DNA of 64,000 nucleotides from NCBI RefSeq assembly GCF_057098645.1, contig NZ_CM169472.1. One strand, 5' to 3'. Made by a program: the position numbers and the translations under genes. Of the stretch, positions 29,738 through 31,189 are shown piece by piece. Every line of letters begins with the position of its first letter. Positions within the stretch are counted from its first letter, which is position 1. The notes under the pieces were generated by a model, which made no database searches, was not told the origin of the DNA, and saw nothing but the letters and a program-made list of their open reading frames with translations.

Positions 29738-29809
29738 GCCTCACGATCCCCACACCTAAAAACACATTGAACCGCCCCGGTTTTCCTGGAGAGTGTTTTA
29801 TCTGTGAAC

Positions 29810-30697
29810 TCAGGCTGCCAGATCATCGTTTCTGATGGAAGCATAATAAGCTTTTTCTGCTTCTGCCGGAGGGATATGACCCAGCCTTCCCAGCAATCGT
29901 CGATTGTTATACCAGTCCACCCACGTGAGTGTGGCCAGTTCCACTTCTGCACGGTTTTTCCAGCTCTTACGGTGTATTACCTCCGCTTTGTAAAGACCAT
30001 TGATGCTCTCCGCCATCGCGTTGTCATACGAGTCACCTGTACTCCCTGTTGATGCCAGCAGTTTTGCTTCTTTTAGTCGCTCCGTATAGGCCAGTGATAC
30101 ATACTGAGAACCTTTATCACTGTGATGGACTGTGCCGGACGGCCGACGGGCCCACAACGCCTGCTCCAGTGCATCCAGCACGAATGTCGTTTCCATAGAC
30201 GATGAGACTCGCCACCCCACGATACATCCGGCAAACACATCAATGATGAACGCCACATAGACGAAGCCCTGCCATGTGCTGACGTAAGTAAAATCAGCCA
30301 CCCACAGCTGGTCAGGACGTTCTGCCACGAACTGACGGTTTACGCGGTCGCCTGCGGAAACGGCTTTCCGGCTGACGGTAGTACGGACCTTTTTACCCCG
30401 GAGAACACCGGCAAGTCCCATAACCGCCATGAGACGTGCCACAGTGCATCTGGCCACTCTGATACCTTCCCGTAACAACTGACGCCAGACTTTACGCACA
30501 CCGTATACCTTGTGATTTTCATCGTATACGCGCTGTATCTCTCTCTTCAGCCAGTCATCGCGCTGAGCACGGGCACTGCGTTTATCAGGATGATGTCGCT
30601 GTTGCTGACAGTGGTAATACGTTGACGGGGCAATATGCAGTTCACTGCATACCGGTCCGACCCCGTACTGCTCACGCAGCTTATCCAGCAGCGGCAT
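29810..30697 (-). CDS. IS629 transposase OrfB
   Basis: 295 aa with DDE integrase-core motifs. Confidence 0.9.
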   Translation of the reverse strand: MPLLDKLREQYGVGPVCSELHIAPSTYYHCQQQRHHPDKRSARAQRDDWLKREIQRVYDENHKVYGVRKVWRQLLREGIRVARCTVARLMAVMGLAGVLRGKKVRTTVSRKAVSAGDRVNRQFVAERPDQLWVADFTYVSTWQGFVYVAFIIDVFAGCIVGWRVSSSMETTFVLDALEQALWARRPSGTVHHSDKGSQYVSLAYTERLKEAKLLASTGSTGDSYDNAMAESINGLYKAEVIHRKSWKNRAEVELATLTWVDWYNNRRLLGRLGHIPPAEAEKAYYASIRNDDLAA

Positions 30698-31023
30698 TAT
30701 TTTTTCCAGAGGCGGTCGAACTCCGCCTTCGCAAAATAAGCGGAAGCCTGGCGAAGGATATCGTTACTGCGGCGCAGTTCACGATTTTCACGTTCCAGCT
30801 CTTTCAGACGCTGACGTTCAGCGGTGGTGAGTCCACCATCACCACTCCCGGTATCCCGCTCATGCTGACGAACCCACACACGCAGAGTCTCTGGTGTACA
30901 GCCAATCTTTGGGGCAATGGAACAAATTGCCGCCCATTGTGAGTCATATTCGCCCTGACTTTCCAGAACCATACGAACTGCCCGTTGACGGACCTCGGGG
31001 GAAAAACGTGTATTTTTAGTCAT
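30697..31023 (-). CDS. IS629 transposase OrfA
   Basis: 108 aa with HTH and leucine zipper; overlaps OrfB for the -1 frameshift. Confidence 0.9.
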
Positions 31024-31189
31024 CCTGTTTACCTCTTTCTCAGGGAGTTTAGTCTCCAGGATTCCCGGGGCGGTTCACATAACCAATTGTATTTGTTGAA
31101 AAATAAATAGATACAACTTGCTAAACAACGCAATCCAGATCTCCCTCAAATCTCTTTATTTATCCTGTCGAATTCCTACAACAAAATAA

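Follow-up and report, generated by a model that had tools for sequence, protein, structure and literature searches.

A complete insertion sequence of the IS629 group very probably transposed into the spacer between the cI-operon terminator and the OL operators of a lambdoid prophage, where it duplicated CAT and is carried as a near-neutral passenger. The DNA analyzed here (the window) is a stretch of 64,000 nucleotides. Its positions 1 to ~39767 hold most of the prophage, which is integrated in mlrA (yehV), the remainder being chromosome. An earlier note had described a complete 1310-bp IS629 with intact inverted repeats and a true 3-bp duplication at this place, and each of these claims held up when the element was read out base by base, matched to annotated copies and compared with IS-free relatives.

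Identity and ends of the element

The element and its borders are as follows.

29768..31077, transposase sense on the minus strand: IS629-type insertion sequence (IS3 family), 1310 bp
29768..29792: IRR, terminal inverted repeat at the orfB 3′ end, facing the cI-operon terminator (inverted-repeat search and end alignment)
31053..31077: IRL, terminal inverted repeat upstream of orfA, facing OL/PL (inverted-repeat search and end alignment)
29765..29767: left CAT of the target-site duplication (read directly; a single CAT in empty-site homologues)
31078..31080: right CAT of the target-site duplication (read directly)

Elements of the IS3 family are ~1.2–1.55 kb long and have imperfect terminal inverted repeats ending in TG...CA. 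The window element is exactly 1310 bp, and its two 25-nt ends are complementary at 22 of the 25 positions when aligned. With slashes marking the element ends, the two junctions read aaaaacaCAT/TGAACCGCCCCGG ... CCGGGGCGGTTCA/CATaaccaat, and in a wider reading aaaaacaCAT/TGAACCGCCCCGGTTTTCCTGGAGA ... TCTCCAGGATTCCCGGGGCGGTTCA/CATaaccaattg. Thus the termini are TGAACC...GGTTCA, with the 5′-TG...CA-3′ of the family, and exactly the same ends occur in three independent copies that lie in other flanks. The element is the only IS629 copy in the 64-kb window, and its GC content is 53% vs 41–44% in the flanks.

IS629, a member of the IS3 family, is prevalent in EHEC O157:H7 and Shigella, and has the isoforms IS1203, IS1203v and IS3411. 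Isoforms are named at a threshold of ~95% nucleotide identity over the full length. The name is set here by annotated GenBank copies; the ISfinder type sequence is that of Shigella sonnei, X51586. Full-length matches number in the thousands in E. coli genomes, phages and plasmids, with identities up to 99.2%. The copy in O103:H2 12009 is 99.24% identical without a gap over 1310 bp, with the same ORF layout and termini, and ‘IS629’ of the O55:H7 phage JLK-2012 is 98.85% identical, also gap-free over 1310 bp and with the same ORF layout. The O145 copies, like that of O103, and the copy annotated ‘IS629 transposase OrfA/OrfB’ in AP019707 are 99.2% identical to the window copy. The mobile_element ‘IS3 family IS629’ of LC567824 (Stx2 phage Stx2_499) is colinear and gap-free over 1310 bp at 95.73%. 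The window copy is closest to the O103/O145/O55 copies, and differs from the O157 Stx2-phage copy by 4.3% (56 sites). No 100% identical donor copy was found in the E. coli genomes, phages and plasmids searched, the best being 99.2%.

With IS629 as known, the window copy shares the 1310-bp length, the termini TGAACCGC...GCGGTTCA, the orfA/orfB layout, the frameshift region and a duplication of 3–4 bp. The O55:H7 copies, which belong to subtype II of Rump et al., are closest to Shigella IS629 (PMC3271280). Because IS629 subtypes differ by 4–5% and IS1203 is counted as an isoform (Rump et al., PMC3271280), the label ‘IS629’ is appropriate at the level of the IS629 group.

The empty site

Short target duplications (3–4 bp) are typical of the IS3 family, and those of IS629 are 3–4 bp (PMC3271280). 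Other IS629 copies have GTA, ATAG and CCAG duplicated beside termini identical to those of the window copy, in which CAT stands at both ends. The chance of a 3-bp flank match alone is 1/64.

The empty site was rebuilt in silico by removing the element and one CAT, leaving 1000 bp on the left (including one CAT) joined to 1000 bp on the right. By megablast, this sequence is 2000/2000 identical, in a single piece, to NZ_CP039837 (O55:H7 USDA5905), and it is matched at 100.0%, again in a single piece, in NZ_CP024127 (14EC001). Two complete E. coli genomes thus carry, over 2000 bp and without a difference, the site with one CAT, which proves insertion with a 3-bp duplication. This is the comparison with IS-free homologues that the earlier note had called for, and both relatives run without a mismatch across the restored site.

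In the BLAST alignments the two halves overlap by 5 bp, CACAT, because CA precedes CAT in the target and is also the end of the element. A 5-bp duplication was rejected on the ground that the termini are invariant in other flanks, which leaves CAT.

Transposase genes and frameshift signals

Two overlapping genes and the signals for joining them lie on the minus strand.

30697..31023, minus strand: orfA, 108 aa, HTH_Tnp_1 (Pfam PF01527, 48.1 bits)
29810..30697, minus strand: orfB, 295 aa, DDE (rve) domain, in the −1 frame relative to orfA
30626..30742, minus strand: programmed −1 frameshift region, with ALIL pseudoknot, A6 run and orfA/orfB overlap (Rfam RF01497)

The orfA ATG lies 55 nt inside the IRL end, and the predicted OrfA is identical, amino acid for amino acid, to that of the O103:H2 copy. 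OrfB matches NF033516 transpos_IS3 of NCBIfam at 311.8 bits (cut-off 160) and the Pfam families rve (90.3 bits) and HTH_21 (64.2 bits), and differs from the O103 protein by one residue (K63/Q63). All of the residues at which OrfA or OrfB differs from given copies occur in yet other copies.

The two ORFs stand in frames 0 and −1 as in the IS3 family, the orfA stop TAA overlapping the orfB start ATG in the −1 frame at AAAAAATAATG, and the predicted frameshift signal is present as well. The ALIL model (Rfam RF01497) is matched over its full length, 1–117, at 120.9 bits (gathering score 50). At IS position 373 stands the A6 run, which appears as T6 on the plus strand (30700–30705). In the O103 copy, PGAP annotates both a ‘programmed frameshift’ and an ‘AL1L pseudoknot’. 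The element is shown, as far as sequence can tell, to be structurally complete: an inverted repeat at each end, undamaged orfA and orfB, the slippery A6 run and the ALIL pseudoknot are all there. The copy, including its mosaic OrfB with K63, is apparently functional and would be competent for autonomous transposition.

The window copy has OrfA/OrfB, a DDE transposase, TG/CA ends and a short duplication in common with IS911, IS2 and IS3. Those elements use −1 frameshifting on an A run with a structured RNA to make OrfAB, and the window copy has the same signals. By what is known of the family, an OrfAB transposase would be made by −1 frameshifting at the A6 run and ALIL. IS911 and IS2 move by copy-out-paste-in via a circular intermediate with a junction promoter (PMC9330008), and movement of the window element would follow the same path. 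Both the circular form and the junction promoter come from work on IS911, IS2 and IS3, whereas the window copy is known from its sequence. Inspection of the IS629 ends by eye gave no convincing IS911-like junction promoter (−35 in IRR and −10 in IRL).

A mosaic patch in orfB

Column-by-column comparison of copies located one tract that sets the window copy apart from its closest relatives.

30434..30512, no strand assigned: putative conversion patch inside orfB

The window copy departs from the O103-type copy at ten sites, all inside this tract, and at each of them it has the letter of the O157-phage IS629 type. Outside it, every site that distinguishes the O103 copy from the O157-phage copy is of the O103 type. 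The tract is bounded by the diagnostic sites 30380 and 30543, giving a length of 79–162 bp, and an identical mosaic was not found at 100% in the E. coli genome, phage and plasmid collections searched. The patch looks like a short gene-conversion tract between two IS629 subtypes, in which case this copy or its ancestor would once have shared a cell with the other subtype.

The prophage around the insertion

The features that define the insertion site, all on the plus strand unless noted, are listed below.

27391, 27416 and 27440 (strand not assigned): OR1, OR2 and OR3, exact 17-mers of GQ499358
27475..29703: cI operon, containing cI, a DUF3024 gene, a 162-aa gene and a 206-aa gene
27475–28179: cI, 234/234 identical to H-19B cI
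28240–28581: DUF3024 gene, directly after cI
28598–29086: 162-aa gene of the cI operon
29083–29703: 206-aa gene, last gene of the cI operon
29710..29737: intrinsic terminator of the cI operon, Timm-like (terminator scan; hairpin 29710–29731, then TTCTTT)
31199–31215: OL3, exact 17-mer of GQ499358
31231–31247: OL2, exact 17-mer of GQ499358
31256–31272: OL1, exact 17-mer of GQ499358, a perfect dyad
31246–31274: PL, TTGCCA-17-TAAAGT (promoter scan)
31523..31906: N antiterminator gene (Pfam N_peptide, 57.4 bits)

The prophage has the same repressor and the same OR and OL operators as the Stx1 phage H-19B, and its immunity is of the H-19B type. With H-19B and ST2-8624 it shares a 100% identical cI, exact 17-mers for OR1–OR3 and OL1–OL3, and the same spacer from terminator to OL, which in those phages is without an IS. 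As for OR0 of GQ499358, the window has no exact 17-mer, and by eye one base is different. Upstream of N (5′), the sequence GCGCTGACAAAGCGC at 31343–31357 presumably forms a P22-type boxB-like hairpin.

Three genes follow cI, and the last of them is common to the lambda-immunity phage HK542. In HK542 the position homologous to the cI-operon terminator is annotated ‘Timm’. Unlike the Stx phages H-19B and ST2-8624, the prophage is stx-negative, no stx genes being present between the Q-like antiterminator (17575–18063) and the SASA/DUF6645 esterase gene (14176–16026). The region 14176–18063 instead holds a TerB-family gene (16505–16966) and a single tRNA-Met (17186–17261), at the place where USDA5905 has three tRNAs.

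Several other observations were made on the prophage. With PADLOC, the DUF3024 protein hits the candidate defence family PDC-S43 (E = 7e-42). Because of this match and of its position, where lambda has rexA/rexB, its gene may serve the prophage in exclusion or defence. The 206-aa gene is common to the lambda-immunity phages HK542 and HK244, and its homologues in two other E. coli genomes are cut by IS1B and IS1A at different points (L011, ~2200; L012, ~2230), so that the region downstream of cI takes IS hits repeatedly. The USDA5905 prophage, though otherwise similar, lacks a nin-region segment, 19237–22682; within this segment, especially at 20411–22183 (plus strand) and 19299–19946 (minus strand), an opposite-strand 590-aa ORF, for which Pfam and PADLOC gave no match, adjoins an ORF with HNH_3/AP2 domains. 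A tandem repeat at 3887–4641 (162 bp, 4.7 copies, 94% matching) lies in the stretch aligning to a USDA5905 gene whose annotation is phage portal protein (frameshifted). Inside an O-like replication gene (25722–26660), at 26236–26313, some four 20-bp repeats (TCCCTCGTTTTAAGGGAATC-like) resemble lambda-type origin iterons. In the RefSeq annotation of USDA5905, the N gene is uncalled (L001 7443–7826), and only a 69-bp partial ‘regulator’ pseudogene is given at its 3′ end.

The chromosomal part of the window is 99.72% identical to K-12 MG1655 over 24.2 kb, with 60 mismatches. A laboratory K-12 lysogen as host, which would imply that the phage brought the IS, had been considered since 4 kb match at 100%, but was rejected on the full 24.2 kb. 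The identity over this length points to a wild strain near phylogroup A rather than K-12 itself.

Position of the insertion and its possible regulatory effect

The element starts 36 bp after the terminator stem and 30 bp after the T-tract, which ends at 29737. On the other side, 121 bp separate its end from OL3 (31199), so that the operators and PL are at least 121 bp away, and the insertion point is ~200 bp upstream of the PL start. With the Timm-like terminator and the OL 17-mers mapped, the placement given in the earlier note, between the two and at 30 bp and ~120 bp from them, proves accurate.

Its statement that no gene is split also agrees with the relatives, three of which, independently annotated, have no annotated gene at the empty site. 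The ORFs crossing the empty site are 21–33 aa long and have GTG or TTG starts only. A search of the empty site with Rfam at a permissive threshold returned nothing but a sub-threshold chance match to rliG (21.9 bits, gathering score 55). The insertion interrupts no gene and no known RNA. Judging from this anatomy, the passenger would split no gene, operator, promoter or terminator, and we infer that it is near-neutral for phage regulation. Its main physical effects would be 1313 bp of extra DNA, a longer OR–OL distance and new homology for IS-mediated rearrangement or excision.

The best-surviving alternative is that the insertion is regulatory, an outward promoter or an altered OL–OR geometry changing N-operon or cI control and with it prophage stability or induction. 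Outward promoters have precedent, as IS911 and, by an analogous mechanism, other IS3-family elements carry an outward −35 in IRR (PMC9330008). In the window element, IRR faces the cI operon and its terminator, not PL, while the side next to OL is taken by IRL and the transposase promoter region. The transposase genes are on the minus strand, and their transcription is directed away from PL and N, towards the 3′ end of the cI operon. No outward promoter turned up at either IS end in a consensus scan. A looser scan found one candidate pointing towards PL, TTCACA (31074–31079)-19 bp-AAAAAT (31074–31104, plus strand), whose TTCACA, 5/6 of a −35 hexamer, is created by the junction of IS and target, and this was the sole outward promoter-like site found. 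It would be a poor promoter because the 19-bp spacer is outside the 16–18 range, and could give weak transcription.

As to geometry, the spacing of OR1 and OL1 increases from 2552 to 3865 bp (2.55 to 3.87 kb) with the element. Long-range cooperativity between OL and OR matters in some lambdoid phages (PMC5977221), and, provided that the H-19B repressor forms loops, the extra 1.3 kb could alter CI-mediated looping. On the other hand, a separation of ~3.2 kb between OL and OR occurs naturally in another Stx phage (PMC5977221), and the element stays clear of PL and the operators by the distances given above. Of the regulatory effect suggested in the earlier note, therefore, the change in spacing is real, but an outward IS promoter finds little support in either the consensus scan or the orientation of the element.

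On balance, we consider it unlikely that the insertion acts as a regulatory change, and just as unlikely that it has a measurable regulatory effect. A more specific version, in which the prophage is a natural spacing mutant of the H-19B-type switch, with OL moved 1.3 kb farther and a weak junction promoter at PL-nutL-N, so that looping, basal N or spontaneous induction shifts, is rated a little lower still. A near-neutral passenger remains the preferred reading of the insertion.

Direction of the event

If the IS were ancestral at this site, the IS-free relatives would have arisen by precise excision that left one CAT, for example promoted by IEE. A 2023 bioRxiv preprint (10.1101/2023.06.07.543989) reportedly describes precise excision of IS629 promoted by IEE. 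Such excision is documented (PMC9330008), which lends the reversed direction a mechanism, but the distribution of the two states opposes it. In addition to USDA5905 and 14EC001, the immunity region of the Stx2 phage ST2-8624 (GQ499358) crosses the empty junction at 100%, and many Stx1a phages span it in one piece (query positions 944–1888). The exact empty junction was also present in three metagenome contigs, which served as a positive control for the junction scan; the same control was absent from the GTDB species-representative genomes. The occupied junction, on the other hand, was not found in 5426 complete E. coli genomes or 50,697 phage records by megablast, or in GTDB species representatives or metagenome contigs by exact scan, so that among the collections searched the window alone has the occupied site. 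Because the empty site is widespread in divergent prophages and phages, a single insertion explains the pattern much more parsimoniously than repeated precise excision would, and we regard the reversed direction as very improbable.

Hardly credible at all is an assembly artefact, in which a multi-copy IS was misplaced by the assembler: IS629 is indeed repetitive in E. coli genomes (median 4, up to 52 places per genome), but each junction is exact to the base, a misjoin would not create the 3-bp duplication, in silico excision restores exactly a naturally occurring sequence, and the copy has its own unique mosaic sequence.

Transposition into the site is thus preferred over both. An IS629-group element would have inserted between the cI-operon terminator and OL of a prophage with H-19B-type immunity.

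Significance

Prophages hold 62% of the IS629 copies in O157 genomes (Rump et al., PMC3271280). The present case is a known element acting in a known way in its favourite habitat, and not a biological novelty. Beyond annotation it has little importance, as few insertion sequences of pathogenic E. coli are better known than IS629, which is found mostly in prophages.

The insertion site itself is new to the collections searched. Unseen in the 5426 complete genomes, it makes a clean, datable marker that could serve strain typing or the tracing of prophage lineages. Part of the immunity region could also be lost through the element, by IS-mediated deletion or by excision driven by IEE. Were the improbable regulatory effect true, the locus would be a natural test of how the OL–OR distance acts on an H-19B-type switch.
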